DNA of 43,792 nt, taken from NCBI GenBank assembly GCA_964441035.1, contig CAYYKF010000001.1, positions 1 to 43,792 of the forward strand, read 5' to 3'. This document shows positions 9,640-43,792 of the stretch, piece by piece. The position numbers were made by a program, and so were the translations under genes. Source of the stretch: an uncultured Candidatus Poseidoniales archaeon. GTDB taxonomy: Archaea; Thermoplasmatota; Poseidoniia; Poseidoniales; Thalassarchaeaceae. Below the pieces are notes generated by a model. The model was not told the DNA's origin. It searched no databases and was given only the letters and a program-made list of their open reading frames with translations. Every line of letters starts with the position of its first letter. Positions within the stretch are counted from its first letter, which is position 1.

Positions 9640-9689
9640 GATATTCCCATCCGCGTCCGGTTCAAAGGAATGCCGACTCCGTACTATGG

Positions 9690-12405: not shown

Positions 12406-12703
12406 TGATAATTGCAAAATATTGAATATCTGGTTTTGAGGATCTTGAATACTGAGAAAATCACATAATCGTGATTTCTGTTTTTGTTAACCCTCAAGAA
12501 AAATTGAAACATATTTCAAATAACAAATTTGTACTCAAACCGGGGCGCTGGAAGTAATTCATGTGGATTTTCGACGTTTGACTATAAACCAATTTGTAAC
12601 TTCAATAACGATTGAATCGACATTCTTTACAGGACGACATGGACATCCTTATCTATTCGACTTGAACTGGCTCGGAATCCCTATGCTCGTTTGATACCCC
12701 TGA

Positions 12704-12718
12704 GATTTCAATTGACGG
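12704..12718 (-). promoter_or_regulatory. ORB-like element, inverted copy (reverse complement CCGTCAATTGAAATC)
   Basis: The reverse complement TCAATTG-AAAT matches TCAATTGGAAAT of the 12390 element apart from one missing G. The two copies face each other across ~300 bp of AT-rich DNA. Confidence 0.35.
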
Positions 12719-12744
12719 TGTTGAGTTGGGATATGTCGCGGATG

Positions 12745-12752
12745 TTATAAAA
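12745..12752 (+). promoter_or_regulatory. TATA-box-like TTATAAAA, candidate orc1/cdc6 promoter
   Basis: TTATAAAA is centred ~28 nt upstream of the second in-frame ATG (12776). This suggests a leaderless transcript starting there rather than at 12752. Confidence 0.4.
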
Positions 12753-13993
12753 TGGAAGGAAATCTTTTCGAAGATATGTTGCATGTCCGTAGTTTGTTTC
12801 GCGATAGGCGGGCACTTAGTCATGCGTTCACACCACTAAGTTTGCCGCACCGTGATAATGAAATTAAGACACTTGTTCACAACTTTGTTGAAGCTCTGCA
12901 TGGTCATGCCCCCTCAAATATGAATCTCTACGGTGTACCTGGTTCAGGGAAGACCGCAGTAACTCGTCTAGTCTGTCAGCAACTGAAAGAGAAAGGTGGA
13001 GAGATTGGGCGGGCGATTCATACGACTGAAATTAACTGCCGAAATGTGGACACAAAATATCGGGTTCTTGCAGAGATTGGGAATGCAATCCGTGGGGATG
13101 ATGATGAATTAATCCCATTCACAGGTTGGCCTGCTGACAAAGTCTTCGATCGCGTGCGCGCGCGCATGGACGCGCGCGCAGGCGTACACCTGATTGTACT
13201 CGATGAGATTGATCATTTGGTGCGTAAGGTTGGGGACGATCTGCTCTACAGTTTGACAAGTCTAAACATTGGCTTGTTAGAGAACTCATTCTGCTGCATT
13301 GTTGGAATCAGTAACGATTTGGCATTCACCGAGATACTTGATCCTAGAGTTGAATCGAGATTGGCACCAATTGACGTGACATTTGCACCCTACAATGCGT
13401 CTCAATTAGAAGATATATTGCTAAATCGGGCAAAAACTGGCATCAAAGAAAATGGTCTGGATGAAGGGGTAATTTCACTCTGCGCGGCTCTTGCAGCCAA
13501 GGAGCACGGTGACGCAAGACGTGCACTTGATTTCCTACGTATCTCGGTGCTTAAGGCGGAACAAGATGGGTGCGACAGGGTTACAGTTAATCATGTCAGG
13601 CAAGCTCAGAATCAACTGGAGTTTGATCAAATCACTCCTGCTGTGGCCAATCTCCCACTGCAACAGAAGATTGTACTATTCTCTATTCTAATCAATGAAC
13701 GAAATGGATTACGGAATATTACGACAGGGGAGTTGTACAATACATATGAGTTGGCTTGTAATAATGCTGCAGAGAAAACACTGACATCAAGGCGTGTTTC
13801 ATCACTTATTTCTGATTTAGACATGATGGGATTAATTTCAGCGAAAACAATCAGTCGAGGGCGGCAGGGGCGTTCAAAACGAATCAATAGTCGTCTTCCC
13901 CCTAATTTTGATGCAATCCAGGTGATGCAAGATTCTGATGCCGTGATGAGCGATGTAATCGATGCCAGATACCGCCTTCAAAAGAGGTTGTAA
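12752..13993 (+). CDS. cdc6: Orc1/Cdc6 replication initiator (AAA+ plus C-terminal winged helix)
   Basis: LPHRDNEI N-terminal motif, Walker A GVPGSGKTA, Walker B LIVLDEIDHL, and sensor region GDARRALDFLR. The length of 405-413 aa fits. The start may be the ATG at 12776. Confidence 0.95.
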   Translation: MEGNLFEDMLHVRSLFRDRRALSHAFTPLSLPHRDNEIKTLVHNFVEALHGHAPSNMNLYGVPGSGKTAVTRLVCQQLKEKGGEIGRAIHTTEINCRNVDTKYRVLAEIGNAIRGDDDELIPFTGWPADKVFDRVRARMDARAGVHLIVLDEIDHLVRKVGDDLLYSLTSLNIGLLENSFCCIVGISNDLAFTEILDPRVESRLAPIDVTFAPYNASQLEDILLNRAKTGIKENGLDEGVISLCAALAAKEHGDARRALDFLRISVLKAEQDGCDRVTVNHVRQAQNQLEFDQITPAVANLPLQQKIVLFSILINERNGLRNITTGELYNTYELACNNAAEKTLTSRRVSSLISDLDMMGLISAKTISRGRQGRSKRINSRLPPNFDAIQVMQDSDAVMSDVIDARYRLQKRL

Positions 13994-14024: not shown

Positions 14025-14597
14025 ATGGTTATGACGAGGGCGCCGGTCGCCGGGCCGATGGCAGACAATGGTGGCGGCAACGGTTCTCGCGCGATTGCCA
14101 CGCTGGCACTGGTTCTTGGGCTATGGGCAACTTGTTTGGGTCTAATCAATATCATCTTTGGAGCTCATGGAACTTCAGAAAACAAACTCAAGGTCGTTTG
14201 GGCTGCTTATCTTAGTATGGGTTCACTTTACCCTGACCTTTACACCTCTGATATGGTCTACAGGCCTTTCAGCGACTCTGTTTTCATGCTACTTTCACTG
14301 GGCCTCACTGCTTGGGGTGCAAAAACACTCCATGACTCAACCGATGGTGGTCTATTGCAATGGCTGAAAAATACTGTAACCTGTGATTCTTGGTTGAGTT
14401 TAATGTCAATGAAAGAAGCCGGTGGGCGGATGACTGCAGCAATGTGGTGCTTGGTCATAGGGGTAGTATTCTACATTTACCAAGGTATTCAACATTGGAA
14501 TTGGGTCGATGTAGGTGTCTATTCAGTAACTGCCTCACTACTTGGATTCGGGTGCGCGTTGATGTTTGCAGCGAAAGCAGAAGAATCTGATGAATAA
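14025..14597 (+). CDS. Hypothetical integral membrane protein (about 4 TM helices)
   Basis: Four hydrophobic stretches: IATLALVLGLWATCLGLINIIF, VFMLLSLGLTAWGA, AAMWCLVIGVVFYIY, VYSVTASLLGFGCALMFAA. No family signature recognised. Confidence 0.55.
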   Translation: MVMTRAPVAGPMADNGGGNGSRAIATLALVLGLWATCLGLINIIFGAHGTSENKLKVVWAAYLSMGSLYPDLYTSDMVYRPFSDSVFMLLSLGLTAWGAKTLHDSTDGGLLQWLKNTVTCDSWLSLMSMKEAGGRMTAAMWCLVIGVVFYIYQGIQHWNWVDVGVYSVTASLLGFGCALMFAAKAEESDE

Positions 14598-15623
14598 TTA
14601 TCGTCGTCTTCTGAAAAGAGGCGGGTGACCATTGCGTCCGAGTATTGCATCGAAAAGACCCTCAATAACACCAATCCAAAGTGTTGCACTCCAGAGAAGT
14701 TGGCGCCAGCGTGATACTACAATGGGCATCCACACAACCCCTGTCACCAATGCCAAATACCAAACTGGAGTAAACATCGGCACCAACAATAGAAACAGTG
14801 CAGATAGGCCAAATCCTATCATTGCGGACGGCAAGAGTGGTACAATATTTCTAGCATCACTAGTGAAATCATGTCGATGTAAACTTCCATCTGGTTTGTG
14901 CACTCCTTTCCGGCCATACACTCTGGCTATTCGTACATGCGCGCGAGCATCTCGTCTACGTTTGCGCAAGAATTGCCGTAATGATGATTCTGCGACGTGG
15001 TGTACTACTGCAGCTGGTGTGTGGATGATGATGCCTCCTGATGCAATGAGACGAAGGCTTACCTCCATGTCTTCCGCATGGTACCAAGAGGGATTGAAAC
15101 CACCGACTTCAAGTAAACTCTCTCTATTGAACATCGAGCAAGGTCCGTTGGCCAGACTAGCAATTCTTGGCCGACTGGCGTACTTTGTGGCAATAGCATG
15201 TGCACGCATTCGACTTGTGGGGGTATCTCCACTATCGAAAATTGTCCGTCCTGTGACTGCAAGAACATATTCACCTCCAATTCCTTCACTCACTCTGATT
15301 AATTCTTCAATCCAATATGGATCTGGGCGGCAATCAATATCTGTAATTGCAACCCATTCTCCTTTCGCTTCATTTAACGCAAGGTTACGACCCGCCGACA
15401 AACCCGTAGGAGTTTGGGTCAAAACAGTTACAGGGATATCCTCATGCATTCCCGACCAAGATTCTAGTTTCTCCCTCCCACCATCGGTTGAACCATCATC
15501 TACAGCAATTATTTCCAATGGCCTATAGGTTTGAGATATCAGTGCATTCAAGCAATCATCAATCCACATTATTCCATCTCTGACACATACTGTCACGCTG
15601 ACTAGTATATTGGAAGATGTCAC
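14598..15623 (-). CDS. Family 2 glycosyltransferase with C-terminal membrane helices
   Basis: VSVTVCVRDG...LISQTYRPLEIIAVDDGSTDGG and ITDIDCRP are GT-A DxD-type motifs. The C-terminus is hydrophobic. I favour the GTG at 15623, which lies 4 nt after AGGTGA. The longest ORF (to 15791) would overlap the upstream gene by 164 nt. The ATG at 15677 is an alternative. Confidence 0.8.
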   Translation of the reverse strand: MTSSNILVSVTVCVRDGIMWIDDCLNALISQTYRPLEIIAVDDGSTDGGREKLESWSGMHEDIPVTVLTQTPTGLSAGRNLALNEAKGEWVAITDIDCRPDPYWIEELIRVSEGIGGEYVLAVTGRTIFDSGDTPTSRMRAHAIATKYASRPRIASLANGPCSMFNRESLLEVGGFNPSWYHAEDMEVSLRLIASGGIIIHTPAAVVHHVAESSLRQFLRKRRRDARAHVRIARVYGRKGVHKPDGSLHRHDFTSDARNIVPLLPSAMIGFGLSALFLLLVPMFTPVWYLALVTGVVWMPIVVSRWRQLLWSATLWIGVIEGLFDAILGRNGHPPLFRRRR

Positions 15624-15627
15624 AATA

Positions 15628-16638
15628 TCACCTAATCTCAAATTGATCGAGTAAATGTCGGCAATGTGCTTTGACATCCTCATCAGTAATTCGAAGGACA
15701 ACACCTTCGCCAGGTTGTCCATACAATATGGCCGACCCCAAAGGTGCAAGAAGATGGAGTAAGATTGGAGCAAGGTCTTCTTCACCATCAATCTCTAGCA
15801 ACACTGGCCCTCCTTCTGGTGAAAATGCAAATTCTAGAGCAAGATCTGAACATTCTAGTAACTCAGGCGTTAGTTGTCCTGGTGGATTGGAGCATGATAA
15901 ATGGCCTCGGAATGATTCTCGATCTAAATTCTCGGCATCAACCCAAATTTCTCGCTTTGTCATTCCATCAACTAGAGCAACATCTGGTGCCCATCCAGAA
16001 TCTAGTAATGCATGTACGGTTACATCGCCAACTGCAATAAGACATGGGCTAAATGTTGGAATGGCTTCTAATGCGGCAGAGACGGCAACCTCAGGTGTAT
16101 CTTCGGGGCCTTGGAATAACTGTCCTTGTGGTTTCTTTAATTCAGAGTCTAACAATTTCACCATATGAACTGGCTTTTCTAGATCCGTTTGGCGTATCCA
16201 CAAATTTCCTTCTCTGTCAATACTACCTTCGCGAATTCTAGAACTTGAGATAGGTAAGCCATCATTTGCCAGAATGTGTTCTACTTCCACTATTTCCAAT
16301 TCATCTAACTCATTTTCTAACCTCATCTCATTGATACGAATACAATTTGCCTTTGTTTCAGTTGTACAAACAATATGGGTTGCATCGGACCGCTGAGGGG
16401 CAGGGCCCCACGGATCTTCCAACAAATGCACAGATAAATTACAATTAGATGCCCAATTCAAAATTGATTCAGTACGATCATCGTGTGATTCAATGCGAGG
16501 ATCCTTTTCTCTTGCGATGGCATCAGCGGATAGCCAAACTTCAACCTGATCGCATTTGCATGCGGCTTCAAGAAGGGCATGATGTCCCAAATGAAGGCGG
16601 TCGAACGTTCCGCCGACCAAACAAAGCGTTCCCGCCAT
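15628..16638 (-). CDS. Fusion protein: archaeal phosphopantetheine adenylyltransferase (N-terminal) plus DUF359 GTP-dependent dephospho-CoA kinase (C-terminal)
   Basis: N-terminal half: LVGGTFDRLHLGHHALL, ...ISSSRIREGSIDREG (cytidylyltransferase-type archaeal PPAT). C-terminal half: LIAVGDVTVHALL, VALVDGMTKR, SNPPGQLTPEL, IDGEEDLAPILLHLLAPLGSAILYGQPGEGVVL (DUF359/COG1909 signature blocks). Confidence 0.8.
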   Translation of the reverse strand: MAGTLCLVGGTFDRLHLGHHALLEAACKCDQVEVWLSADAIAREKDPRIESHDDRTESILNWASNCNLSVHLLEDPWGPAPQRSDATHIVCTTETKANCIRINEMRLENELDELEIVEVEHILANDGLPISSSRIREGSIDREGNLWIRQTDLEKPVHMVKLLDSELKKPQGQLFQGPEDTPEVAVSAALEAIPTFSPCLIAVGDVTVHALLDSGWAPDVALVDGMTKREIWVDAENLDRESFRGHLSCSNPPGQLTPELLECSDLALEFAFSPEGGPVLLEIDGEEDLAPILLHLLAPLGSAILYGQPGEGVVLRITDEDVKAHCRHLLDQFEIR

Positions 16639-28378: not shown

Positions 28379-31300
28379 TCAAATCAGATCATCTAGAAAG
28401 GATGTATCGACATCATTCCCTTCTGCCATGGAAGGAAGATCATCAGCAGTACTTGCAGCAGGATTCATTGAAGGAACTTCGGTTAACGGTGGATTGTGCA
28501 TTGGCAATGGATCATCTTCAGTTGATTTCCAAAGGTCATTGGTCCGATCCATGTCGCCAGATACAAGGCTTGATTGATCCAGATTGAAATCATCTTTACT
28601 GCGAGCTCTACGCAAAACAAAGAATGTAGTGATTGCTGCGAGAACAATCAATACTCCAACAAGAGCAAGAACAAGACTCATCACTGAGAATAAGTCATCA
28701 GAAGATTCTGTGCCAACACCAAATGGTGGCACCTCCAAAGGAGAGACTTGGATAATTTCGCCTGCTGCATGGTCATTGGTGACTGCAATCCACCAATACT
28801 TAGACGAGTCAATCGGTTCTCCATTGATTGTCGTGATTATGAATGTGTCATCTCGTATATTCACAGCAATTTGAACAGACTCCCCAGTGACTGTAAATCG
28901 TGAATCTGATATGTAAATCGAAAGTCCAGCCCTTGCAGATTCTGTGCGATCCCAGGTAATCTCCAATGCAGTTCCATTGTATATCCATTCCGCGGTTAAA
29001 TCAGAAACTGGTGACTCAACTTCCACTGGTTCAGCATCTGCAATCGGTGTCATCGAAGCGGGTAGGATGTCTGCACAATTGACATTGGCAGAGGCATCCA
29101 CTGCGACAATTGCAACTGTCACCTGCTCAGTAGGCTCGAGGAAACGGCCACTGGAATAGCGATCCAGTAACAAGGGTTGCTCCGCGTCCACAGGGAGGAG
29201 CATCGCTGGTTGTAATTCACATGTCTCCTCGTAGTAGTAAGATTCCACATAAATCGCATACCAAGCGACATCATCCGCACCTGAAGGGGTGAATTCCATC
29301 CATAGAGCGTTGCCGTAATCATTCACCACATCGGACAGCGTTGGACGGTCCATTCGAGGTGGTGCCTCTGTATCTCTTAGATCATCAATCGGCATCACTG
29401 AAGTGGTTACGAGCGAATCTAGGAAGACGTTCCCATCTCCATCATGAGCAGAGACGGAAACAAACAATTCGACGTCTGGCTGGATTTGGAGACGGATACC
29501 CATATTCAGAGAATCCCCATACAATGCTTTGTCAATCACCATTGTATCGGATATTCCGGCAACCATGACCATCTCTGCGCATGTATCGAGATAGAAGGAA
29601 CAGCGTGACCACATGCTGGAGACATCAGACACATCATGTTCCGATACCCAAACCGTGTAGTGGACTACATCTGAATCAATTGAAGGTGTCCAACTGACTT
29701 CAATCGCGTGTCCAGAATCACTCGGGATATCACTTGCACTAACGCTCTCTACGCGCGCGGGCGCATCTGTCTCTCGTAAATCTGCCAAAGGCATGCCTTC
29801 ATCCCAGGGGCTATTCTCTGGGTCTGCATTCAGATTGGTATCATAAGCTACGACTGTCACCCAATATGCTTGGCCGTCATCAAGACCTCCGATCATTGTG
29901 TCGGTATTCTCACAACCCTCAATCCATTCAACGACTGGGGCCTCATCTGCACTTACCGGAGGCCATGCTCCGCTTACTGGTGTCAGATGTACTGCGTACA
30001 ATGCGCAGTCATCAGCCTCAGACTCTGCCCAAGATATGTCAAGCACACCACCTGAATCATCAGGATGGTCTTCTGCGAGAACCCAGTCAAGAGGTTCAGG
30101 GGCATCTGTATCATTCTCAAGTGAGGTCGAGATTGGACCAATTATGAGTGGATTCGGTAAGTCGATTTGCCAAGCAGTATCGACACAGTAAATTCGAGCC
30201 CAAACAGGGGTGCCAAGCAAGGGGATGCTGGTGGAATTATCTCCTGAAGCAGGGTTTACGTCCTCACCCTGCCATCCAGAACTGAACGAATCAAGGGGTT
30301 CAAGCGGGCTTATGGAGTAATCGAACTGGCTAAATTGATAATCTAGAGCACTGCAATACTCCCATTCAACTAGGACCTCGGTATCACTGAGTTCGGTGTT
30401 CGCCCATGAGGGTGCGAGCGGGATGTCATCGAAAGGTGATACTGGTCCAATTGTATTGCTTGAGTTAGAGTGGTTGCCATTGCTGTAAACAACCTCGACC
30501 CAAGCAGTGTATCCTTCCGCGTCATCCAGTCCGGTTATTACCGTCTGGACGTCGAATCGTGAGGGAATTGTAATCGAGTTTGGAGTTTGTTCGTTTGCGC
30601 CAATATAATACAATTCATAGGCAGAAAAACCGGTCTCAAGCGTTGGTGTCCACATCGCAACAAGTGCATCCCCGCCATCATTCGGTCGGTCTTCAAGAAG
30701 CAACATCTGAACAGGGCTGTCGGAAGGAATCGCAGTGTAGGTCAGACGGACTTTAATCGAACCATTGGACGGTGAATCGAAGCGGAGATGTAAATCATGA
30801 CCTGTGCTGTTTGTATCACCAAAGGCGACCGCTTCTAGGAGAGCACGCATGGCTGATTCTGAATTTGCTATATTCCACGTACCAGAATAATCGACTTGAG
30901 TCGTGCGTGCCCAAACAGCAGCACCTTCGATATCACTGCTGAAAATGAGTGGAACCTCTGCAAGTGAAAGTGCATCATTCTCTTCACCCACGAGCACACC
31001 CGTACCCAAATCAAGTGTGATGGAATTATCCGGTCGAGCGGCGGTCGTGATGTCGGTCATCTCAACACCGATTGTCGCGCGAAGAGGTGTTGCGCGCTTG
31101 TCGACAACCTGCGGCATCATTTCGTAACCTGGAGAAGGTCCAAAGGGCCGTACACCATCCTCACCTGCAGCAACCCAAGTTCCGTATTGACCCTGGAAAG
31201 TCGCAATGATTCCAGGTGCACCCGTTGAATTGATTACAGGATGGCCAACACCTTGCACTGAAATTCGATGCATCAATCCGGTCGTACCTGCAAGTAGTGT

Positions 31301-34300
31301 CTGGCCATTGCTGGATAGGCTGGTGATTGGCCAACCATTGGTATCAGAAGCCACAGCCCCGTTCTCCATCTGATTGGTTATCGCATTCCAATGTGACAAA
31401 GGCTCCTCCTCTGTCGCGATGTGAACACCCCATCCATCTGCAGCAATAGCAGTAACATCGTTACTTGGCAATGAGTCTGCATGATACTGTAAGAGTGCGT
31501 TTCGGTCAACTCCACGAACCTGTGTAGCGCCCGGTCTTGTTGGACCGAAGCCATCATGGCTAGCATAGAGTAAGCCTCCTGCACTCGCGATGTCCGCTGT
31601 AGAAGTCCCTGTCAATCCTTGATTTCTAGTTAGGCATTGTTGCACATTTGGCATTGATGTTACAGGTGAGGATGGATTAACCGCACAGAGTCCACCAAAG
31701 GTGGCTACCCAAAGTTCTCCCCCAGCTATTTCCAACCCGCGTACATCTGAAGAAGGAAGACCCGCAGCCACACTGACAGTAGGCCCCCAACTGTTTGCTG
31801 CGATATCCCACGAACCAACACCGCCCGGAGTAGCAAACCACACGCTGCCATCATACTCCACCACATCTTCTACAATCGGAGATGGTAAACCTGGAATTAA
31901 CGCGCCATCAATGAACTGTTCATTGTTCAAATCAAACACAGCCACGCCAGCAGCCATTTCTACAGCACTAAGGCCAATGACAAGATCACCATCATGCAGT
32001 GTCATGAAAGAGAGACTTTCGTGAGAGGCTGGTGGCATTGCACCGATGTCTCCAGTAGACAAATCAATGCGATGAAGCCCAGAATTTCGAGTCGTAACCC
32101 AAAGCAATCCATCTTGTAGGAATAAGCGTTCAATCGAAGCATAATCCAACTCCCACGAACGGGCCCAATCGACATCTCCGTTTGCCAATATTGTGCCTTC
32201 CAAAATCGTTGATGCCCCATCAGTTCGGGCTGAACCTGACGACAAGAATGCCGCATAAACATGGGAACTGTTGCCTGCAAAATGTCTCACACGACCATCA
32301 GTCATACCGGTCCAAGCACCCATGGTACCGAAATCATCGCCCAAGGAGTTGAACATCTTCGCGCGCCCGGGACCATTCGCACCAGGTTGAGCAACCAACC
32401 AATCAACTGAATTTCCTGGTAATTGGGGATAAGGAACAATCGAAGTCGTACTGATTCCATGATCGACACTTCGTCCATTACCGGTCCAATCACCTAGGAC
32501 TGGAATAGTAGAAAATGACCCCTCTGAATTGAAGTCGCCACCTTGCACATGACCAAACGCGAGGATGCTGTTTGCCCAATACATGGCATCGTGTGCAACA
32601 CCAGACCAACCCATGTCAAAATCATCAGGATAAATTGGATCCATCCATTCCTCTTCGCCGTAATCATATCTTTGAATTCCAAATTCTCCTTCTTCCGTGC
32701 CAACATAGAGGATATCTTCAGTATCACAAGCAAGCGCTGTAACTGAGGCCCAATACAAGCCATCTTGCTCCTGTCGACCGCCATTGTCGAAATCGAATTC
32801 AAATTCAGATTCAAAGGGCTCTAGCCATTCGTTCTGAATTGGGTCATAACGAGCAATTCCTCCTTCACCATCCCAAACTTCACCATAAAATCCGAAATGG
32901 ATGATATCAGCACACATCTCAATCGTGATTCCTGTTCCATCTGGAATCTCATCCGTGCTTGAACCTGACCAAGTCATCCATTGATTGGTCGAACCATTCA
33001 ATCTGTGTATTTGAGATGATGAACTCGACGAAGAAGACTTGGTAATCATCCACAAATCATCACCGATAACCTCGAGAGAACGGACATTGTTTGAGGCGGA
33101 GGGTGGTAACCCATCACCGGCCTCCCATGGGTCAACAAAATTCCAATTTGAGGTGGAGACGCGAAGGACACCATCTGGTGATGCCAACAATCCATATCCA
33201 TCCCATGTCACCGCAGCCCTAATCGGACCCTCAAGAGAAGGTTCGCTTTCTACCGTGCCATCAAGCCACATCATGCGATGATAATCATCTCCGAAGGAAG
33301 ACAATATGATGCAAGACTCTGAATCTGCTAGAATACTCGTAGAATCACAATCGCCTAGGAAAGCAACCAAACCTTCGTCTTCTACCGAACTCTCTGGCTC
33401 AATATCATCGAGCCATTGTTCTGCATTTGCGTCCCAACGTGCAATACCTGCTGGGTCATTACTCCAGTGGTATGAGTTGGGCTTGCCAATACCAATCCAA
33501 AGTTCATCTCCGCGTACATTCTCCATACCGATGATTGAAAGTTGATTTTGGTTTGGAGACAGGAAGGAAGGTCGTAAGTCACTCAACTTTTCTTCGGAAT
33601 CCACATCATAACGAAATACACGTGTTGCAGGTTGTCCAAAGCCTTGGTTACCGCCTCCACCGCCTCCTGGTCTTTGACGGCCTTCAGTTCCATCTTCACC
33701 GTCTTCCGACTGGAGGATGAAATCAAAATCATCACCATCGAATATATCGGTAAACGTGTCCAAATTTCTACGCTCAGGAGGCGTTTCAAGATAATGTAGT
33801 ACTTCATCGATTCGAACCAATTGTTGTGGGGCACGTGGTGAAACCCTTGGATCACTATCATCATCCCAATTGTTCAGTTGATTGCCATTTCGCATATCTA
33901 ACTCGACCAAACCAAAATCACCACCGACCCAAAGGTGCTCGGATGAGATATCATCGCTCAGAGCTGTCACACCATTATTCGGCAATTGGCCTGATGCAGC
34001 ATTCCATGGTGACAACCACTGCTGTGTATCAAGGTCATATCGAGCAACCCCTATTCCATCGACTGCTAGATGCGCAACATCATTCCAGACAACGACTGGT
34101 GTGTTCCATGTCGAACCACCAGTGGACCAAGATTGTAGGATGGTCTCATTCAATGTATCAATGAGATACGCGCCATGGTCTGTTGAAACGTAAATTCGAT
34201 TGGGAGAAGGAATTGTTAGAGAATTACCGTCAGTGGTATCGATTTCAATGTTAGACCGGGGATTTGAGTTCCAACAGGTAATGAGGGAAAGGTCATCGCG

Positions 34301-36688
34301 CTCATAGACGCACAGGCCTTGAAATTCCTGTAAAGCATACAACTTACTTCCTTCACTGGCAAAGGCTGTCGTTCGTCCACCGAACCAAATGTCTCCAGCA
34401 TCTGGATTCTCAAAACCATCAGCACTGCGTCGTACAAATCCCATCTCATGACCGACATAAACTTCTCCATCGACATCTACGTGCAGTGAGAGAACCCAAG
34501 GGTTTGGCAAACTCGCAAATTCTCCTTCTTCCATATCGTCAAGCCACCACCACCAATCTTCTTCAGATTCGGCCCAAGTCTCAACGATTTCGCCGGTATC
34601 GCGATCAAACACAAAGACGCCTGCATCGTATAATCCGAGATAAACGCGGTCACCACCAACTGCAATCGGTGCATGTTCAACATCATCGACATCGCTTGAG
34701 CGCCATGAACCAAGTATTTCCTCTGTGATGAGATTCACCCGAGCAACACCCTCACCTTCAATTGCAACGAATGCGATTCCGTTTCTGGCAACAACATCGA
34801 AGGCATATCCGCGCTGGAATTCATCATTCTCATTCCACACATCTATGCTACCTGTAGACATCTCGATTCGGCCTAGGCCATCATCACCCATTGCGATAAG
34901 AAGCGAGCCTGTGAGAGCATCCCATGCTAGGGCGGTTGGGTCCGCAGACATACCCATGGTGATGGTATCAGCATGAGTTCCATTCGATGCCCATACATCA
35001 ATCGATAATTCATCTCCTACACTGAACAAACGATTACCATCTGTTGTAATTGAGTTGACTCCATGCTCAGGGAACAATGGGCTAAGCCACGCGCGCGCGC
35101 GAACATCGAACCTGTCAATCGCAAGGTCACCCGCTGCATACAAAATCCCATCGATTTCGAGTACATCATGCACATGTTCATTGGTCGGAGTTGTTGCTAA
35201 CAATAGGTCCCCAAGTGCCTGTGGGGCTGCTAATGCATCCAATACTGCAAGTCTTCCGCTACCATCGCTCACCATCAAAGCTGATTGCGTAGGTGCTCGT
35301 AGGCCACCAGTTGGCCAAGATACCAAATCCATTCCTTCATGATTGAGACCCATAGCAGGAAGCATCGATTCACCAGTAAATGATGCAGTTACAGTGTTGT
35401 AAACATGTAGACCCACATCGGTAAGAATAGAAGTAGAGTTACCATTGGCAGAAAGGTCGACGATATGATTCGATGAAAGCCAGTTTCCATCATGCCAAAC
35501 TGCCAACCAATTTCCACTCGCCAAATCCTTTCGAGCCAACCCCTCATCAGTGGTACCAACAAACAAAGTTCCATCATTATGAGACAAAATTGAGATGTGG
35601 TCACTTGGAAGATGATTTGCTGTAGACCATCCACTCAACCTGGTATCTGCAACACGATTCCATCGTGCTATTCCACCTCCGTCTGTCGAAACGAGAATTT
35701 CATCTCCAAGGAATAGAATATCAGTTGTAGGTTCATCAGGCCATTGTGAGTCGGAATCTGAGGAAATGGCCTCTTGCCATCCATTACCATCATTGACATG
35801 CAGATGACCTGCACCTGCAACCCAGATGTGACCTGATGAGTCTAGAGCCATCTGGGATGATGAAGATGGAGCATTGCTTAGAGGGGTGCATTGCGCACCA
35901 CCAATAAGTTGCCAGCAAAGGATATTTCCACCCTTCTCTAATCCAAGAATTCGATCATTTCCCACATCAACAGCCAAGGAAATGAGGTCAACTCCTTCGA
36001 TTCTATCGATAATCGATGGCGATGCGCTCGCATCTAGTATCAGCAACGAATCTCCACTGACAGCAAGGTACAGGCGACCATCATCGGGATGAACTGCATG
36101 TGCTTGAATGTCAAGCATATATGGAGTCAAAGAAACCAGTGGGTCCACCGGACGAAGTGCCTCAATAATGACATCAGTAACGGTTGCATTGTTAGGAATC
36201 TGCCATGTTGCAGTGGTATCTGATTGTGGTGCCATTCGACCGTTGTGTGGATCACCGTCTGAGAAATCGAGAAGACGACCTAAACCTGGACCTGACGACC
36301 AATCAAGCACCATCGAATCTGACGCAGGAGACCAGATTCGTGGGTTTTCAAGGAACAAGTCATTAGCACCATCAACCTGTATCTGAAGAGATATATCCGA
36401 CATTTGTACCCCATAGGGAACTAAATGATGGAAATCTGCTGTAGAGAGGTTATCTCCATCCGGGTCTGTCAAATCAAGTTGGACCCAACCTGTATCTACT
36501 GGAATCCCAGATTCTTCTGTACCACCTTCAGCAGATGTAGAGGTCAATAAAGGCGAGAGTGACATCAGTAGCATCAATCCGCAGAGCAAGAGTGCTTGTC
36601 TGGGCTGTGACATCACTTGGAATGGCCGCAATCGGGCCGTTATGGTAGTTCTGGTTCGCTGTATTTGGCACATCATTGGTGTAACCAA
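28379..36688 (-). CDS. Giant (about 2745-2769 aa) type I membrane-anchored surface protein: signal peptide, multiple Reg_prop-like beta-propeller regions, tandem FN3/Ig-like modules, C-terminal TM helix and 77-aa acidic cytoplasmic tail
   Basis: Single uninterrupted ORF. The probable start is the ATG at 36613 (MSQPRQALLLCGLMLLMSLSPLLTSTSA|EG). At least 11 blade signatures occur, such as ILVSTDGGGIARWN, LFVGTTDEGLARKD, LYVGTEEGEFGIQRYD, LWVTTRNSGLHRID and VWFATPGGVGSWD. The TM helix LFSVMSLVLALVGVLIVLAAITTFFVL is encoded at 28613-28693. Confidence 0.85.
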   Translation of the reverse strand: MVTPMMCQIQRTRTTITARLRPFQVMSQPRQALLLCGLMLLMSLSPLLTSTSAEGGTEESGIPVDTGWVQLDLTDPDGDNLSTADFHHLVPYGVQMSDISLQIQVDGANDLFLENPRIWSPASDSMVLDWSSGPGLGRLLDFSDGDPHNGRMAPQSDTTATWQIPNNATVTDVIIEALRPVDPLVSLTPYMLDIQAHAVHPDDGRLYLAVSGDSLLILDASASPSIIDRIEGVDLISLAVDVGNDRILGLEKGGNILCWQLIGGAQCTPLSNAPSSSSQMALDSSGHIWVAGAGHLHVNDGNGWQEAISSDSDSQWPDEPTTDILFLGDEILVSTDGGGIARWNRVADTRLSGWSTANHLPSDHISILSHNDGTLFVGTTDEGLARKDLASGNWLAVWHDGNWLSSNHIVDLSANGNSTSILTDVGLHVYNTVTASFTGESMLPAMGLNHEGMDLVSWPTGGLRAPTQSALMVSDGSGRLAVLDALAAPQALGDLLLATTPTNEHVHDVLEIDGILYAAGDLAIDRFDVRARAWLSPLFPEHGVNSITTDGNRLFSVGDELSIDVWASNGTHADTITMGMSADPTALAWDALTGSLLIAMGDDGLGRIEMSTGSIDVWNENDEFQRGYAFDVVARNGIAFVAIEGEGVARVNLITEEILGSWRSSDVDDVEHAPIAVGGDRVYLGLYDAGVFVFDRDTGEIVETWAESEEDWWWWLDDMEEGEFASLPNPWVLSLHVDVDGEVYVGHEMGFVRRSADGFENPDAGDIWFGGRTTAFASEGSKLYALQEFQGLCVYERDDLSLITCWNSNPRSNIEIDTTDGNSLTIPSPNRIYVSTDHGAYLIDTLNETILQSWSTGGSTWNTPVVVWNDVAHLAVDGIGVARYDLDTQQWLSPWNAASGQLPNNGVTALSDDISSEHLWVGGDFGLVELDMRNGNQLNNWDDDSDPRVSPRAPQQLVRIDEVLHYLETPPERRNLDTFTDIFDGDDFDFILQSEDGEDGTEGRQRPGGGGGGNQGFGQPATRVFRYDVDSEEKLSDLRPSFLSPNQNQLSIIGMENVRGDELWIGIGKPNSYHWSNDPAGIARWDANAEQWLDDIEPESSVEDEGLVAFLGDCDSTSILADSESCIILSSFGDDYHRMMWLDGTVESEPSLEGPIRAAVTWDGYGLLASPDGVLRVSTSNWNFVDPWEAGDGLPPSASNNVRSLEVIGDDLWMITKSSSSSSSSQIHRLNGSTNQWMTWSGSSTDEIPDGTGITIEMCADIIHFGFYGEVWDGEGGIARYDPIQNEWLEPFESEFEFDFDNGGRQEQDGLYWASVTALACDTEDILYVGTEEGEFGIQRYDYGEEEWMDPIYPDDFDMGWSGVAHDAMYWANSILAFGHVQGGDFNSEGSFSTIPVLGDWTGNGRSVDHGISTTSIVPYPQLPGNSVDWLVAQPGANGPGRAKMFNSLGDDFGTMGAWTGMTDGRVRHFAGNSSHVYAAFLSSGSARTDGASTILEGTILANGDVDWARSWELDYASIERLFLQDGLLWVTTRNSGLHRIDLSTGDIGAMPPASHESLSFMTLHDGDLVIGLSAVEMAAGVAVFDLNNEQFIDGALIPGLPSPIVEDVVEYDGSVWFATPGGVGSWDIAANSWGPTVSVAAGLPSSDVRGLEIAGGELWVATFGGLCAVNPSSPVTSMPNVQQCLTRNQGLTGTSTADIASAGGLLYASHDGFGPTRPGATQVRGVDRNALLQYHADSLPSNDVTAIAADGWGVHIATEEEPLSHWNAITNQMENGAVASDTNGWPITSLSSNGQTLLAGTTGLMHRISVQGVGHPVINSTGAPGIIATFQGQYGTWVAAGEDGVRPFGPSPGYEMMPQVVDKRATPLRATIGVEMTDITTAARPDNSITLDLGTGVLVGEENDALSLAEVPLIFSSDIEGAAVWARTTQVDYSGTWNIANSESAMRALLEAVAFGDTNSTGHDLHLRFDSPSNGSIKVRLTYTAIPSDSPVQMLLLEDRPNDGGDALVAMWTPTLETGFSAYELYYIGANEQTPNSITIPSRFDVQTVITGLDDAEGYTAWVEVVYSNGNHSNSSNTIGPVSPFDDIPLAPSWANTELSDTEVLVEWEYCSALDYQFSQFDYSISPLEPLDSFSSGWQGEDVNPASGDNSTSIPLLGTPVWARIYCVDTAWQIDLPNPLIIGPISTSLENDTDAPEPLDWVLAEDHPDDSGGVLDISWAESEADDCALYAVHLTPVSGAWPPVSADEAPVVEWIEGCENTDTMIGGLDDGQAYWVTVVAYDTNLNADPENSPWDEGMPLADLRETDAPARVESVSASDIPSDSGHAIEVSWTPSIDSDVVHYTVWVSEHDVSDVSSMWSRCSFYLDTCAEMVMVAGISDTMVIDKALYGDSLNMGIRLQIQPDVELFVSVSAHDGDGNVFLDSLVTTSVMPIDDLRDTEAPPRMDRPTLSDVVNDYGNALWMEFTPSGADDVAWYAIYVESYYYEETCELQPAMLLPVDAEQPLLLDRYSSGRFLEPTEQVTVAIVAVDASANVNCADILPASMTPIADAEPVEVESPVSDLTAEWIYNGTALEITWDRTESARAGLSIYISDSRFTVTGESVQIAVNIRDDTFIITTINGEPIDSSKYWWIAVTNDHAAGEIIQVSPLEVPPFGVGTESSDDLFSVMSLVLALVGVLIVLAAITTFFVLRRARSKDDFNLDQSSLVSGDMDRTNDLWKSTEDDPLPMHNPPLTEVPSMNPAASTADDLPSMAEGNDVDTSFLDDLI
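28694..30697 (-). repeat. Tandem FN3/Ig-like module region of the giant protein (protein-level repeats, aa ~1998-2665)
   Basis: Recurrent module openings: LEDRPNDGGDALVAMWTP, DTDAPEPLDWVLAEDHPDDSGGVLDISWAES..YAVHL, ETDAPARVESVSASDIPSDSGHAIEVSWTPS..HYTVWV, DTEAPPRMDRPTLSDVVNDYGNALWMEFTPS..WYAIYV. Confidence 0.6.
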
Positions 36689-39688: not shown

Positions 39689-40906
39689 CTATTCTAATTC
39701 TTGAACTGCTGTAACTTCACCTTGTGATAGTTTAGCATCTCCACCTAGCGAGTAATTTCTACCTCGCCATTTGACCTCGCGCCCGAGGAAAATACTGAGG
39801 TAAATGATTGGTGCGCTCAAGAATAATAGTGGGATTATTGGCCAATGCCAAAATTTCAAACTATTACCTCGTACAATACTGTCAAATCTGAGAATACTGG
39901 CATTGAGAGACAAGTTGGCTGTAGCGAAAATTATCATGGCAATGAAAGAGGGTGAGACGATTGCACCAATCAAACTGGCCCAAAACAGTATACCCTGAAT
40001 CCAAGTGATAAATTTCAAATCATTATTTGACAAACCACTTCGAGAAAATGTAACCCAGCGTTTGAAAATAGACCAGAATTGAGAGAATGTTAAGCCTGAT
40101 TGAATGATTGAAACTGGTCGATTTGAAACGACATTCTCGTATCCTGCTGCAGAAACACGGGCTCCAAGAAACATGTCGTCCACCAACTGCCCTTGAGCAG
40201 ATTTGATGCCACCAATTGTATCCAGTGACTCACGGCGAAAAATCATGTACTGACCCATCACAAAGGAGAGTTTGTTTTCGGACTTCTTCACAACTCTCGC
40301 AAGTGCTGGACTGTATAATCCGTTGAGTAAAACGCTGTAACCAGCATCACCAAAAGTTTGGGGAGGTAAACTCACAGCCACTGGAGCAAAGGCCGCACCA
40401 GATTTGTCATTTGAAATGAGTGATTCGACCAAACTACGAAGTGTATCCCGATCACTGCGAATATCGGAGTCAGCGAAAGCGATGAGGTCCCCTACCGATT
40501 CATCAAATGCGACTAGCATCGCATTCAACTTCCCAGTCCATCCCATTTTGGGTTCACCACAGAAAATAATCCGTGCATCTACATCTGGAAATTCTTGCAA
40601 AGCATTTTTCACAATTGATACGCCAGGTTCATCTTCATCATCAAACACAAAAATAATCTCAATATTACCAGGATAGCCATGATTTAGAGCAGCTCTAACG
40701 TTCTCTTCAATCTGATAGTCCAATCCTTTAATCGGCCGAATCAGAGATACACTCGGGAATTGCTGAAGAATCGGATTCTGTGAGATATTGTCGTTTGAAG
40801 TCAAAGCACGAGACATGATAATGTGAGAACGGATTACTTCAAGAAGAAAAAATGAAGCAATGATGATTCCTACAATTTCAATATAATTAATTTCCACTAC
40901 TATCAC
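39689..40906 (-). CDS. Integral-membrane GT2/GT21-type glycosyltransferase (ceramide-glucosyltransferase/processive-synthase-like)
   Basis: It has an N-terminal TM helix. Motifs are VSLIRPIKGLD...YPGNIEIIFVFDDEDEPG, ADSDIRSD (DxD) and a FKRW (QxxRW-like) motif. Four or five C-terminal TM helices follow. It starts 1-10 nt after the pilin-like gene stop (GTG 40906 or GTG 40897 after AGGGTGA). Confidence 0.75.
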   Translation of the reverse strand: MIVVEINYIEIVGIIIASFFLLEVIRSHIIMSRALTSNDNISQNPILQQFPSVSLIRPIKGLDYQIEENVRAALNHGYPGNIEIIFVFDDEDEPGVSIVKNALQEFPDVDARIIFCGEPKMGWTGKLNAMLVAFDESVGDLIAFADSDIRSDRDTLRSLVESLISNDKSGAAFAPVAVSLPPQTFGDAGYSVLLNGLYSPALARVVKKSENKLSFVMGQYMIFRRESLDTIGGIKSAQGQLVDDMFLGARVSAAGYENVVSNRPVSIIQSGLTFSQFWSIFKRWVTFSRSGLSNNDLKFITWIQGILFWASLIGAIVSPSFIAMIIFATANLSLNASILRFDSIVRGNSLKFWHWPIIPLLFLSAPIIYLSIFLGREVKWRGRNYSLGGDAKLSQGEVTAVQELE

Positions 40907-40907
40907 C

Positions 40908-41345
40908 CTAAGTGAAATTTACCGTAGCACTCAATTGTAATTGAAGTCTTGAATGGCTATCGGCAATTCCAGCACTGGCTGAAATCATCCTAGTTGAACC
41001 ATTTCCGGTTACTGTGATATCTGTGAGAATAATTTCTACACCAGGTCGAAGTTCTCCATGACGCATCAAATCCTCAGAAACCGATTCTGCTGCTGCTACA
41101 GATGCGGATGTTTCATTATATCCTGCATTGAAAAATACGGGTGTACGATTCTGCAAAAGTGGTTGCCATGCTTCAACCACTTCCACACTCGTATCTAGAA
41201 CTGCATCCTCATTTCCATCATACGGCTCACCAAGGCTGGCCGTCTTGACAGTGGTTAATGACATCGTTAGTAAAGAAAACATCAGAACCAAACCAGTCAT
41301 CAGTAACATTTGTCCTCCCTCATCATCAATTGATTCACGGCGCAT
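40908..41345 (-). CDS. Pilin-like protein with a class III (type IV prepilin-like) signal
   Basis: MRRESIDDEGGQMLLMTGLVLMFSLLTMSL has a charged leader, G-Q, then a hydrophobic helix, followed by a ~110-aa Ser/Thr/Val-rich domain. Its ATG shares its A with the upstream stop (TGATG at 41347-41343). The longer track ORF (to 41390) is not needed. Confidence 0.5.
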   Translation of the reverse strand: MRRESIDDEGGQMLLMTGLVLMFSLLTMSLTTVKTASLGEPYDGNEDAVLDTSVEVVEAWQPLLQNRTPVFFNAGYNETSASVAAAESVSEDLMRHGELRPGVEIILTDITVTGNGSTRMISASAGIADSHSRLQLQLSATVNFT

Positions 41346-41806
41346 CAATTTCCACCTCCTGCATGCCAAACTTGAATTCCAATTGTCCAAACTCTACCCT
41401 CATCATGAACCAAATGATGAACAGACAATGTATCACCTTCTGTCTGCGATATGACACCATGCAATGTCTTCGGACCGGCATCCACAGCTATCCAGCAATT
41501 TCCTCTAATTGAGGAACTTAATGAATCTAACATCGTGTTACAAGCTTCATCGAGATTATCTGAAGAAAGCATTTCACCTAGTCTCGATGTGTGATTCTGA
41601 TTATCGATGGCTTCTTCTCCTGCAAGACTATCATAGGCATCCTCTGCTGCCAAATCCAGTATTCCATCCCTAGCAGGAGACACAGGATCTGGAACTTTCA
41701 ATTGCAAGATGAACGTAGCGGTCATGAAGAATAACCAAAACAGTGTAATCATTTCAATGATGTGAACTTGCGCATTCTGTTCACGAAACTTACCGCATGG
41801 ACGCAT
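41345..41806 (-). CDS. Pilin-like / pseudopilin-like protein with an N-terminal hydrophobic helix
   Basis: MRPCGKFREQNAQVHIIEMITLFWLFFMTATFILQL has a basic leader, A-Q, then a helix with Glu at +6. GGGTGA lies 4 nt upstream of the ATG. The gene follows the platform gene by 9 nt. Confidence 0.45.
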   Translation of the reverse strand: MRPCGKFREQNAQVHIIEMITLFWLFFMTATFILQLKVPDPVSPARDGILDLAAEDAYDSLAGEEAIDNQNHTSRLGEMLSSDNLDEACNTMLDSLSSSIRGNCWIAVDAGPKTLHGVISQTEGDTLSVHHLVHDEGRVWTIGIQVWHAGGGN

Positions 41807-41815
41807 AATTTCACC

Positions 41816-43660
41816 CTACGGACCTAGTGTACCATGCATCGGAATTGTACCAATATTGGGGCTCAAACCCACGGGTTGAGGCACACCAATCAAATCTGGG
41901 CTGAAAGCGGCGATGTTGAACAATAGCAAACAAAGTATGAGCATCATTCCTGCATGCTTCATTCCTGTTGCTAACCGACCTGTCGCCATTAGACCGGCCA
42001 TTGCACCATTACCCATGGCCTGCGCGCAAACCCCATAGAAGAAAACGACCAAGAAGAAAATGGGGTTTACTGCATTAATTTGCATGTTTCCAATTTGTGC
42101 ATCTTCTCCACCTGAATTACTCGAAGCAATCGCTGGAATGAATACCTTTGAAAGAATCACAATAACCACTAAGAAAACAATGAATGAGACCCAAATCACT
42201 GCAATGTAAGAACCAATTGCACGTTGTCGTTCGCCCTTCAAGAATTGAATTTCACGACTGTCGTTTGCCGCAGTTACAAGAATATCTGAAATTTTTCCTC
42301 CAGCTTTGTTGGCCTCTGAAACCAGACTAACGGCTCGCTTTACTAGCGGAGTTCCTACTCTTTCTGCAAACATATCAAGAACATCTGAAAAAGCGATACC
42401 CCAAGATAATTGATCTGACATTTTCTTAACTTCTTCATTCAGTGCCCCATATTCTGAGTTGGCAAGTGTCTTGACAGACAAGGTCATTGAAAGGCCACCC
42501 TTCCAGTACTCTGCTAGATCTCGAAGGAAATCTGGGAACTTGTCTTCGATTGCGTTAATCTTCCTCATTTGACGGTCAGAGTAAAGAGCTGCTGGATAGA
42601 CCATAACCAGCAAACCAATCCCAAAGAAATTGACGAAAAGAGTAGGGTGCATGTTCAATGGTCCCAATTTCAACTCTGGGCCAACCCACAAAGAACCATT
42701 ACTCATATATGCTGGAATTCCATCATAAGACTCAACTTCAATTGAGAAAGATACTTCATTCAGCAAATGTCCTTGTGGATCAAATCTGAATAACTGCAGG
42801 GGATTTGAAGAGGATGCTGAGAACGATACCTCTTCGGTAAATGTGATAGTATTGTCTGAGCAAGATTCAACAATACCGAGGATTTTGTTGTTTGAATCAT
42901 AAACAGTGTCACCTGATGAGAAATTGCCGATGAAATTTCCTGCATTTGGTCCACTGACTTCCTTTCTGACACAGGCCTCATTACCTTGAACTTGGATTAG
43001 TGTCCCTGTTTGTGATTCAGATACAACAGTCTGAGTATTCTTTATTGGTATGAAAACAACCCAAATTTGGTATTCACCAATTGGTTCGGCGTGAGGAATC
43101 GTATCCGAGCATTGTCCATCATTCGCGAAACATGTCATCGAAAGAAGTTTGTCAGTTCCATTACTATAGCCTTGGATGTCCTCTATGTGATGAATCTGAA
43201 CAAAATATCGATAATTATTACTCGCATCAGCAGATGACGTGACTGTCATCTCCTGTTGTGGGTGTGGGTGCCTCATATCATTTGAATCCATCAATTGAAG
43301 ACTACTCATACCTGGAACATGGAATGATTTGGCTGTCCCTGGAGCCTGAACCCTCAGCCAATTCTCTGACCATGATTCGATATGCGGTTTTTCATTGGTT
43401 AAGAAACATGATTCATTATCAAAATATGAGGGGCCGTTCACATCTGCAGGGTCAAATGAATCGGGACAAGCCAAATTGACAAACATAGGATTACCATTCG
43501 CCGGCTTAAACACGAGGTCAGAATTAGTAATCCAAAATCCAAAGCAAAACAATCCAAGCATTACTCCAACCATCAGAATCGCAAGGAAGGTGGTTTGGGT
43601 ATTGTCATCTTTAGGCAAATTTAGATCGACACGAATCTTTTCATTCTTTTTACGCGCCAT
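41816..43660 (-). CDS. T2SSF-family (FlaJ/TadC/UpsF-like) pilus platform membrane protein with an N-terminal ~290-aa extracellular domain
   Basis: The C-terminal 250 aa read FPDFLRDLAEYWKGGLSMTLSVKTLANSEYGALNEEVKKMS...VGTPLVKRAVSLVSEANKAGGKISDILVTAANDSREIQFLKGERQRAIGSYIAVIWVSFIVF. That is one T2SSF repeat plus flanking TM helices. The N-terminus has TM1 (aa 24-45), then a Cys-containing non-membrane segment (aa 46-338). SD GGGGGGTGAT lies 5 nt upstream. Confidence 0.75.
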   Translation of the reverse strand: MARKKNEKIRVDLNLPKDDNTQTTFLAILMVGVMLGLFCFGFWITNSDLVFKPANGNPMFVNLACPDSFDPADVNGPSYFDNESCFLTNEKPHIESWSENWLRVQAPGTAKSFHVPGMSSLQLMDSNDMRHPHPQQEMTVTSSADASNNYRYFVQIHHIEDIQGYSNGTDKLLSMTCFANDGQCSDTIPHAEPIGEYQIWVVFIPIKNTQTVVSESQTGTLIQVQGNEACVRKEVSGPNAGNFIGNFSSGDTVYDSNNKILGIVESCSDNTITFTEEVSFSASSSNPLQLFRFDPQGHLLNEVSFSIEVESYDGIPAYMSNGSLWVGPELKLGPLNMHPTLFVNFFGIGLLVMVYPAALYSDRQMRKINAIEDKFPDFLRDLAEYWKGGLSMTLSVKTLANSEYGALNEEVKKMSDQLSWGIAFSDVLDMFAERVGTPLVKRAVSLVSEANKAGGKISDILVTAANDSREIQFLKGERQRAIGSYIAVIWVSFIVFLVVIVILSKVFIPAIASSNSGGEDAQIGNMQINAVNPIFFLVVFFYGVCAQAMGNGAMAGLMATGRLATGMKHAGMMLILCLLLFNIAAFSPDLIGVPQPVGLSPNIGTIPMHGTLGP

Positions 43661-43675
43661 CAGTAATCACCCCCC

Positions 43676-43792
43676 TCAGATTTTATTTTCTTCGCTCATC
43701 AGCCACACAAGACCGGAATATGCAATGTGAATCATTGGTAGCATACCCAAAACAATGCCATACACCATACCCTCACTAATCTGTGATCCTGC
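43676..43792 (-). CDS. C-terminal 38 codons of a membrane protein (5' part beyond the window end), possibly the second (TadB-like) platform subunit
   Basis: Hand translation gives ...AGSQISEGMVYGIVLGMLPMIHIAYSGLVWLMSEENKI* ending at TGA 43678-43676. It is hydrophobic and lies 15 nt upstream of the T2SSF gene. It is not in the ORF track because it is truncated. Confidence 0.5.
   Translation of the reverse strand, partial: AGSQISEGMVYGIVLGMLPMIHIAYSGLVWLMSEENKI

Follow-up and report, generated by a model that had tools for sequence, protein, structure and literature searches.

A conserved operon likely encoding an archaeal type IV pilus-like filament with a two-gene platform in the Poseidoniales

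Background

The euryarchaeal 'clade 2' pilus loci, represented in the haloarchaea by the Haloferax PilB4-C4 type (PMC4858521), comprise genes for an ATPase and a T2SSF platform protein, followed by co-directional small genes whose products have class III-like N-termini. Makarova et al. treat the haloarchaeal DUF proteins as pilins whose role is unclear (PMC4858521), and related haloarchaeal pil operons promote adhesion (PMC6491452). According to Makarova et al. (2016; PMC4858521), many of the euryarchaeal clade 2 loci have two tadC-like genes. A divided platform is also part of the CdiP machinery of Cuniculiplasma divulgatum (Thermoplasmatales), where CdiPFa corresponds to the N-terminal and CdiPFb to the C-terminal part, and the CdiP filament is adhesive and non-twitching (PMC12448462). 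Platform fission was further described in Epd-like and Tad systems by Denise et al. (2019), with TadC being N-like and TadB C-like (PMC6668835). Here, a stretch of 43,792 nucleotides (nt) from an uncultured Candidatus Poseidoniales archaeon (contig CAYYKF010000001.1; hereafter the window, meaning the whole stretch analysed) was studied, and its right-hand end is considered likely to hold the distal genes of an operon that is conserved in the Poseidoniales (Marine Group II; here Thalassarchaeaceae-like) and specifies an archaeal type IV pilus-like filament of this clade 2 kind.

Marine Group II comprises the most abundant planktonic archaea of the surface oceans, none of which have been cultured, and their attachment to particles or phytoplankton has been argued from gene content alone. 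Public pipelines label the operon 'FlaI/FlaJ plus hypothetical proteins'. In JGI/IMG the ATPase is named 'flagellar protein FlaI' and the platform 'flagellar protein FlaJ', with no archaellum-specific genes in the locus. Surveys counting flaJ-like genes as 'archaeal flagella' could include this operon (cf. PMC6461757).

Results and discussion

The operon is conserved among the Poseidoniales

A total of 22 loci were compared, including four from look-ups of exact proteins, seventeen from a genome scan and the window's own locus. The gene order ATPase, T2SSF protein of ~350 amino acids (aa), T2SSF protein of 504-620 aa, small protein A (small A) and small protein B (small B) is observed in 22/22 loci, as far as the contigs reach, and the T2SSE ATPase is encoded in all of them, although cut by the contig end in some. 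The homologues are named in the source annotations as Candidatus Thalassarchaeaceae, Poseidoniales or Marine Group II. Across the loci, the ATPase shares 85-98% amino acid identity, while values of 40-74% and 37-71% were observed for small A and small B, respectively, and identity of the platform falls as low as 44%. Many homologues of each product, constant in length, are present in metagenome-assembled genomes of Poseidoniales, and the open reading frames (ORFs) can thus be regarded as real genes rather than chance ORFs. Look-ups with other proteins of the window yielded short contigs that offered little context.

Within the window, five co-directional genes are located on the minus strand with spacers of 15 nt or less, and the ORF listing and reading of the junctions recovered the genes, the spacers and the TGATG overlap as the initial annotation of this DNA had described them. 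The first is a truncated ORF at the right-hand end (43676..43792), comprising the C-terminal 38 codons of the N-terminal half of a T2SSF platform, the TGA of which (43676-43678) lies 15 nt ahead of the ATG of the gene for the 614-aa C-terminal half (41816..43660). The stop codon of the latter is separated by 9 nt from the start of the pilin-like small A (153 aa; 41345..41806), and the stop of small A (TGA) and the start (ATG) of the pilin-like small B (145 aa; 40908..41345) overlap in the sequence TGATG. The last gene of the series encodes a polytopic GT21/GT2 glycosyltransferase (39689..40897). Behind the TAG of small B, the sequence reads GGTGA-tagta-GTG. Initiation at this GTG (40897) gives a 402-aa product and a 10-nt gap after small B, while GTG 40906 gives 405 aa and a 1-nt gap. 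GTG 40897 is most likely the start codon, since GGTGA sits 5 nt upstream of it, as in the other genes, and it is also the start called by JGI.

A GGTGA-type motif likewise precedes small A and the 614-aa gene, and similar G-rich motifs lie ahead of small B and the ATPase gene. Together with the short spacers, these Shine-Dalgarno-like motifs fit one polycistronic unit. Such motifs, GGTGA or GGAGGTGG, occur 4-8 nt before every start codon of the operon, and that of small B (window 41345-41375) falls within the codons for the conserved G-G-G at the C-terminus of small A. Scans of the window for Rfam families and tRNAs returned no matches.

The locus could be extended beyond the right-hand end of the window with the JGI contig Ga0118722_1001373, which encodes an identical 614-aa protein. 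On this overlapping contig, the truncated ORF is completed to a T2SSF protein of 356 aa, with the C-terminus of which its translation is identical, and the remainder of the gene is located at 8915-9985 in the coordinates of locus L001, to the right of the window. It is preceded by a gene for a 506-aa T2SSE ATPase with a faint PilB3_N signal (L001 7354-8874), as expected by the initial annotation, which had placed a secretion ATPase immediately to the right of the window. Ahead of the ATPase gene are 142 nt of intergenic DNA that contain a T-run as well as an A/T-rich box, and the operon likely begins behind this region, outside the window. In comparisons against the PDB, the best match of the ATPase is the Archaeoglobus fulgidus secretion ATPase (GspE) 2OAP (401 bits), while lower scores were obtained for Sulfolobus FlaI (267 bits) and Tad CpaF (128 bits). 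It scores 400 bits on the NCBIfam FlaI model (cut-off 550) and 135 bits on the TadA-family model TIGR03819 (cut-off 373), and is ~42% identical to haloarchaeal pilus ATPases. The T2SSE ATPase and T2SSF platform genes support the earlier interpretation of the locus as a type IV filament module.

The platform is encoded by two co-linear genes

Pfam T2SSF matches the 614-aa protein once, in its C-terminal part (residues 378-503; E = 2.2e-15). When aligned with a 679-aa two-domain haloarchaeal platform, the 356-aa protein corresponds to residues 142-325 (E = 2e-16) and the 614-aa protein to residues 439-677 (E = 7e-23). Similarly, the 356-aa protein matches positions 45-219 of the 555 in the NCBIfam ArlJ profile, and the 614-aa protein its C-terminal half. 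The ArlJ models are the best NCBIfam matches of both halves, with scores of at most 58 bits against cut-offs of 400-570. No mutual similarity of the 356-aa and 614-aa proteins was detectable with BLASTP. Since the two halves map co-linearly onto the two-domain haloarchaeal platform, the platform is, on these alignments, a co-linear gene fission product of a two-domain archaeal platform, with the N-half followed by the C-half. The single C-terminal T2SSF repeat of the 614-aa protein, and the splitting of the platform over two single-T2SSF genes, had both been proposed in the initial annotation and are confirmed by the Pfam and alignment data. The arrangement had, however, also been termed atypical, which is contradicted by its precedents in many euryarchaeal clade 2 loci (PMC4858521) and in CdiP (PMC12448462).

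In C. divulgatum, a member of the same phylum, the N- and then C-terminal platform genes are likewise co-linear and located beside an ATPase gene, but the CdiP system differs in having two ATPases and pilins encoded ~500 kb away (PMC12448462), while the Marine Group II C-half has an outside domain of ~300 aa. This likeness is drawn from the published description, and the two systems may be orthologous. The haloarchaeal loci, by contrast, encode a single two-domain platform of ~680 aa, as opposed to the split platform with an added outside domain observed here. Tad (type IVc) and archaeal Epd-like pili (PMC6668835) resemble the Poseidoniales locus in having two adjacent single-T2SSF genes by the ATPase gene and a role in adhesion. 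The fission is nevertheless probably independent of that in Tad, because the order of the halves, N-half then C-half, is opposite to that of TadB (C-like) and TadC (N-like), the score against CpaF is low, and the Tad partners, namely a Flp-type short pilin, TadZ, a secretin and TadV, are absent from the Marine Group II locus. The order ATPase, platform, pilin A, pilin B is shared with the Ups/Aap systems of the Sulfolobales, which have a single-gene platform and unrelated pilin families, and the UpsF model gives scores of 43.8 and 28 bits (cut-off 400). In view of these UpsF scores, the order of the halves and the far higher score of the ATPase against 2OAP than against CpaF, the label 'Tad/Ups-like' initially given to the module is imprecise.

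The topology of the C-half, derived from hydropathy and charge only, comprises a transmembrane (TM) helix at residues 26-44, a predicted outside segment at ~45-340, a second TM helix at 341-359, the T2SSF domain and further TM helices. Six cysteines and four sequons occur in the predicted outside segment. Conservation is moderate over residues 47-136, and residues 137-312 are a variable insert, which is 176 aa long here and ~80 aa in most relatives. The insert shares only 6-54% identity, as compared with 67-88% for the T2SSF part and the high identity of the ATPase, and diversifying selection could be acting on this predicted surface-exposed part of the platform.

The small proteins are remote relatives of haloarchaeal pilus-locus families

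Small A has the N-terminus N-A-Q|V-H-I-I-E (| marks the predicted cleavage position), followed by a hydrophobic helix, with Q13, H15 and E18 being invariant. Within the Poseidoniales, the motif A-Q-[V/I]-H-x-x-E is invariant and accompanied by the hydrophobic helix and a V-P-D-P kink, and Cys89 and Cys104 are also invariant. The N-terminus of small B, D-E-G-G-Q|M-L-L-M-T-G-L, includes the invariant stretch G-Q-M-L-L-M-T-G-L, and the protein further contains a kink, L-G-E-P-Y-D, as well as two N-glycosylation sequons that are invariant (N66-R-S/T and N77-E-T/S). Both proteins are conserved over their whole length within the Poseidoniales. The invariant sequons of small B and the conserved cysteine pair of small A suggest that both are located outside the cell. 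The class III pattern, applied as a regular expression, is matched by small B only, and the cleavage of both proteins is putative. AlphaFold2 models (mean pLDDT of 83 for small A and 75 for small B) have a membrane helix at the N-terminus, two or three additional helices and an antiparallel sheet of three or four strands, with small A comprising the TM helix, three helices and a four-stranded sheet.

The window proteins themselves fall below all Pfam thresholds, with no gathering-level match to DUF7288 or DUF7261, and NCBIfam has no family for either. Among their relatives, however, 15/20 small B proteins match DUF7261 (best E = 4.2e-5), while 5/20 small A proteins match DUF7262 (best E = 0.007) and 1/20 matches DUF7288. 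A small A profile searched against 1.84 billion representative proteins produced 65 matches at E <= 1e-3, and the family can thus be considered narrow. The distant full-length matches (144-190 aa) retain [A/G]-Q-x-[H/Q/Y]-x-[I/L/M]-E, often preceded by R/K, as well as a C-terminal tryptophan, and 11/14 members of the aligned set match DUF7288 (best 34.6 bits; cut-off 27). A scan of genome contigs with small B revealed close Poseidoniales relatives only (63-71% identity). The comparison of small A with small B by hhalign gave a probability of 31%, which leaves paralogy unproven. Profile searches of the PDB with the alignments of both small proteins gave nothing meaningful, and nothing specific was found in the literature on DUF7261, DUF7262, DUF7288 or Thalassarchaeaceae pili.

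The haloarchaeal N-termini, M-R-A-Q-A-H-T-L-E-G in DUF7288 and E-R-A-Q-M-F-L-I-G-G-L in DUF7261, carry the same signatures, and in two loci, on a plasmid of Halobaculum halophilum (L023) and on pHME505 of Haloferax mediterranei (L028), DUF7288 and then DUF7261 are encoded behind the platform. In both, five small genes follow the platform gene, in the order DUF7287, DUF7288, DUF7261, DUF7266 and DUF7289, with Pilin_N genes nearby. An ATPase gene ahead of the platform gene is annotated in Halobaculum, while in H. mediterranei it is represented by a tblastn match only. A further match, on a Halorubrum plasmid, lies in a locus broken by an IS element and is uninformative. Compared with these loci, in which there are five small genes, Pilin_N genes close by and an ATPase of much larger size (989 aa in Halobaculum), only two small genes are present in Marine Group II, and the similarity between the haloarchaeal and Marine Group II small proteins is remote. 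Remote but consistent evidence therefore relates small A to DUF7288/DUF7262 and small B to DUF7261. Because the same N-terminal signatures occur in the same gene order as in haloarchaeal DUF7288-DUF7261, the Marine Group II pair, judged by its sequences, represents the pilin set of this type of euryarchaeal pilus in reduced form. The class III-like N-termini to which the initial annotation drew attention are thus partly supported, with a conserved [A/G]-Q and hydrophobic helix in both proteins and remote kin in haloarchaeal pilus-locus families.

Proposed function of the operon

In the proposed mechanism, a hexameric T2SSE ATPase would drive a membrane platform of two polypeptides, which together represent the N-half and C-half of the one-chain, two-domain T2SSF protein of haloarchaea, the C-half adding a fast-evolving extracytoplasmic domain. 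Small A and small B would be made with class III-like signals, [D/E]-x-[A/G]|Q followed by a hydrophobic helix, processed by a prepilin peptidase encoded elsewhere and extracted from the membrane by the platform. Most likely they act either as (pseudo)pilins of a minor or priming kind or as the building blocks of a short filament, and adhesion to particles or cells would be the likely function. The transferase would be an accessory insertion in a variable slot, most likely glycosylating a membrane lipid.

Several observations weigh against a pilus-like filament built in this manner. Neither small A nor small B of Marine Group II has the usual K/R at position -2, and likeness to the haloarchaeal proteins themselves, as determined by hhalign with single proteins, is limited to ~27 N-terminal residues and of low probability. 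Known archaeal pilins have an Ig-like sandwich as head, whereas alpha/beta heads are predicted here. Foldseek comparison of both models with the PDB gave no match at E <= 1e-3 and no pilin, archaeal or bacterial, the top matches being dynein light chains, ribosomal proteins and NTF2-like folds (TM-scores <=0.35). The pilin fold considered for the two small proteins in the initial annotation was thus recovered for neither, which keeps room for small A and small B as machine-associated or priming components rather than the main subunit. Nor was there a prepilin peptidase (PibD/EppA/ArlK, Peptidase_A24), for which a search near the locus had been suggested, in the 43.8-kb window and 10 kb to its right, or a PilA/Pilin_N-type major pilin in the 54 kb searched. 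However, since peptidase and pilin genes are often unlinked to the pilus machinery (PMC4858521; PMC12448462), their local absence says nothing about the whole genome. The short spacing and the GGTGA motif ahead of the transferase further suggest that it is co-expressed with the pilus genes here, and it may have a functional link with them.

Alternatively, small A and small B could be uncleaved bitopic components of the machine, comparable with the ArlF/ArlG stators or the PilN/PilO alignment proteins, with the true PilA/Pilin_N pilins encoded elsewhere, as is the case for Haloferax PilB3C3 and Cuniculiplasma CdiP. This would agree with the lack of a solved pilin among the matches of the predicted folds, the high conservation of the proteins (65-97% identity for small B), the absence of a major pilin family at the locus and the precedent for pilins encoded in trans (PMC4858521; PMC12448462). 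It nevertheless appears unlikely, as the invariant [A/G]-Q and E are found exactly at the class III cut position, distant homologues have the canonical R/K-[A/G]-Q, and the related haloarchaeal families are classed as pilins by Makarova et al. (PMC4858521). Furthermore, small A and small B match neither ArlF/G or PilN/PilO nor the Pfam archaeal flagellin family.

The type IV pilus-like filament remains the preferred interpretation, and a more specific form of it can be envisaged, albeit as a speculative and rather improbable one. A pared-down machine of one ATPase, a two-piece platform and two pilin-like proteins with alpha/beta heads would display the diversifying ectodomain, and would constitute a short pseudopilus or a surface-display/adhesion device rather than a classical long pilus of Ig-like pilins. 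Specificity or exposure to viruses would reside partly in the ectodomain, and a lipid glycosyltransferase would have been recruited in some lineages to remodel the membrane surface.

The glycosyltransferase occupies a variable slot

The transferase matches Pfam Glyco_transf_21 (E = 2.1e-25; 89.6 bits, cut-off 21.7), as well as GT2 families, and its initial assignment as a polytopic GT2/GT21-like enzyme is upheld by this score. The best NCBIfam matches are HpnI (E = 8.8e-38; 130 bits), HpnB and CruG, and its only relative in the PDB is ceramide glucosyltransferase (E = 1.3e-22). Like the transferase, ceramide glucosyltransferase and HpnI/HpnB combine a catalytic GT-A domain with a polytopic membrane region behind it, although the HpnI score is below the equivalog cut-off of 310 bits. 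The models of processive enzymes are matched below equivalog level, with scores of 31 bits for PgaC (cut-off 422), 27 for NodC (cut-off 550) and 20 for CelA (cut-off 699), at E values of only 1e-7 to 1e-4, while AglG is matched at 9e-4. HpnI and ceramide glucosyltransferase are thus far closer than PgaC, NodC and CelA, and the earlier description of the transferase as processive-type is not retained. Since the best relatives act on lipids, the enzyme is most likely non-processive and its acceptor a membrane lipid rather than the pilins.

Eleven loci are informative downstream of small B. The transferase is present in two of these, the window's own locus (L001) and its closest relative L010, the two enzymes being 60% identical, and absent from the remaining 9/11. 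The slot is occupied by a YgaP-like gene in L002, a fatty-acid desaturase gene in L003 and genes for large unknown proteins on the opposite strand in L006 and L007, while in L004, L005, L014 and L021 a convergent kinase gene directly follows small B, and in L008 and L020 there is a gap of less than 400 nt with no transferase match. The stretch that separates small B from the convergent AAA_33 kinase gene is a variable spot and a hotspot for lineage-specific genes. The genes in this hotspot include those for unknown proteins of 764, 579 and 557 aa. The membership of the operon attributed to the transferase by the initial annotation is therefore not conserved, and while the gene is probably co-transcribed with the pilus genes in this lineage, it would be accessory to the conserved machine.

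The coupling of the transferase with the filament, as suggested in the initial annotation, would imply that it glycosylates the pilin-like proteins or a lipid-linked glycan donor, or that it makes an adhesive exopolysaccharide. The 10-nt spacer, the operon-type GGTGA motif and the lack of space for a terminator are in keeping with such a role, as are the two invariant sequons of small B and the retention of the transferase at the same place in a second lineage (L010). Such coupling is, however, very improbable, given that the slot lacks the transferase in most informative loci, where it holds unrelated genes or nothing, that the closest relatives of the transferase glycosylate lipids while PgaC, NodC, CelA and AglG are matched weakly, and that the sequons are kept in genomes without a transferase at the locus. 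Archaeal N-glycosylation, moreover, runs through AglB.

Distinction from the archaellum and relevance to Marine Group II

A degenerate or divergent archaellum, as implied by the JGI gene names FlaI and FlaJ and consistent with the 400 bits on the NCBIfam FlaI model and with ArlJ as the top NCBIfam models for both platform halves, can be virtually discounted, as the FlaI (400 vs 550) and ArlJ (<=58 vs 400-570) scores are all under the equivalog cut-offs, archaellin, ArlF/G, ArlH and ArlCDE/X genes are absent from all 22 loci, and the small proteins fall in pilus-locus families, not in the archaeal flagellin family.

As a separate, universally syntenic pilus-type operon, the locus could serve as a cleaner marker of adhesion potential. 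Two conserved hypothetical families are assigned to the pilin-like DUF7288 and DUF7261, albeit remotely, and one more case of platform fission is added in the Thermoplasmatota. The system would represent a known archaeal family with a pared-down pilin-like set and a fast-evolving platform ectodomain, with no new mechanism or principle.

Neighbouring genes and other features of the window

Upstream of the pilus ATPase gene (L001 4796-7211) are genes for an ABC ATPase of the DrrA type and for a polytopic membrane protein of 546 aa without a Pfam or NCBIfam family. This pair is present in every Poseidoniales locus reaching that far, with other genes between it and the pilus ATPase gene in L002, L004 and L005. 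A bindosome-like role in conjunction with the ABC pair was considered and rejected, as the ABC ATPase is of the DrrA/exporter type and the BasE and BasF scores are far below cut-off; the genes inserted between the pair and the pilus ATPase gene in L004 also disfavour it.

Located ~3 kb from the pilus operon, between ECH and 3HCDH genes, is a minus-strand gene (28379-36688) for a giant acidic protein of 2769 aa, which has a TM anchor at the C-terminus and signals for Reg_prop and fn3, and is likely a surface adhesin. At the corresponding position, L002 and L005 have no gene and L003 has nothing more than a 109-aa ORF, which makes the gene another variable insertion. A second giant gene is represented by an ORF that leaves the left end of the window (1-2984, minus strand), the product of which is a protein of at least 1964 aa on contig Ga0118722_1004203, with no Pfam match. 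A second polytopic GT2 glycosyltransferase is encoded on the minus strand at 14598-15791. The adjacent plus-strand gene (14025-14597) encodes a 190-aa protein with no Pfam match, of which the N-terminus, G-S-R-A|I-A-T-L-A-L-V-L-G-L, fits a class III-like pattern. Further to the left, a Cdc6/Orc1 replication initiator gene (12752-13993, plus strand) is preceded by a 440-nt intergenic region (12313-12752), which could hold a replication origin.

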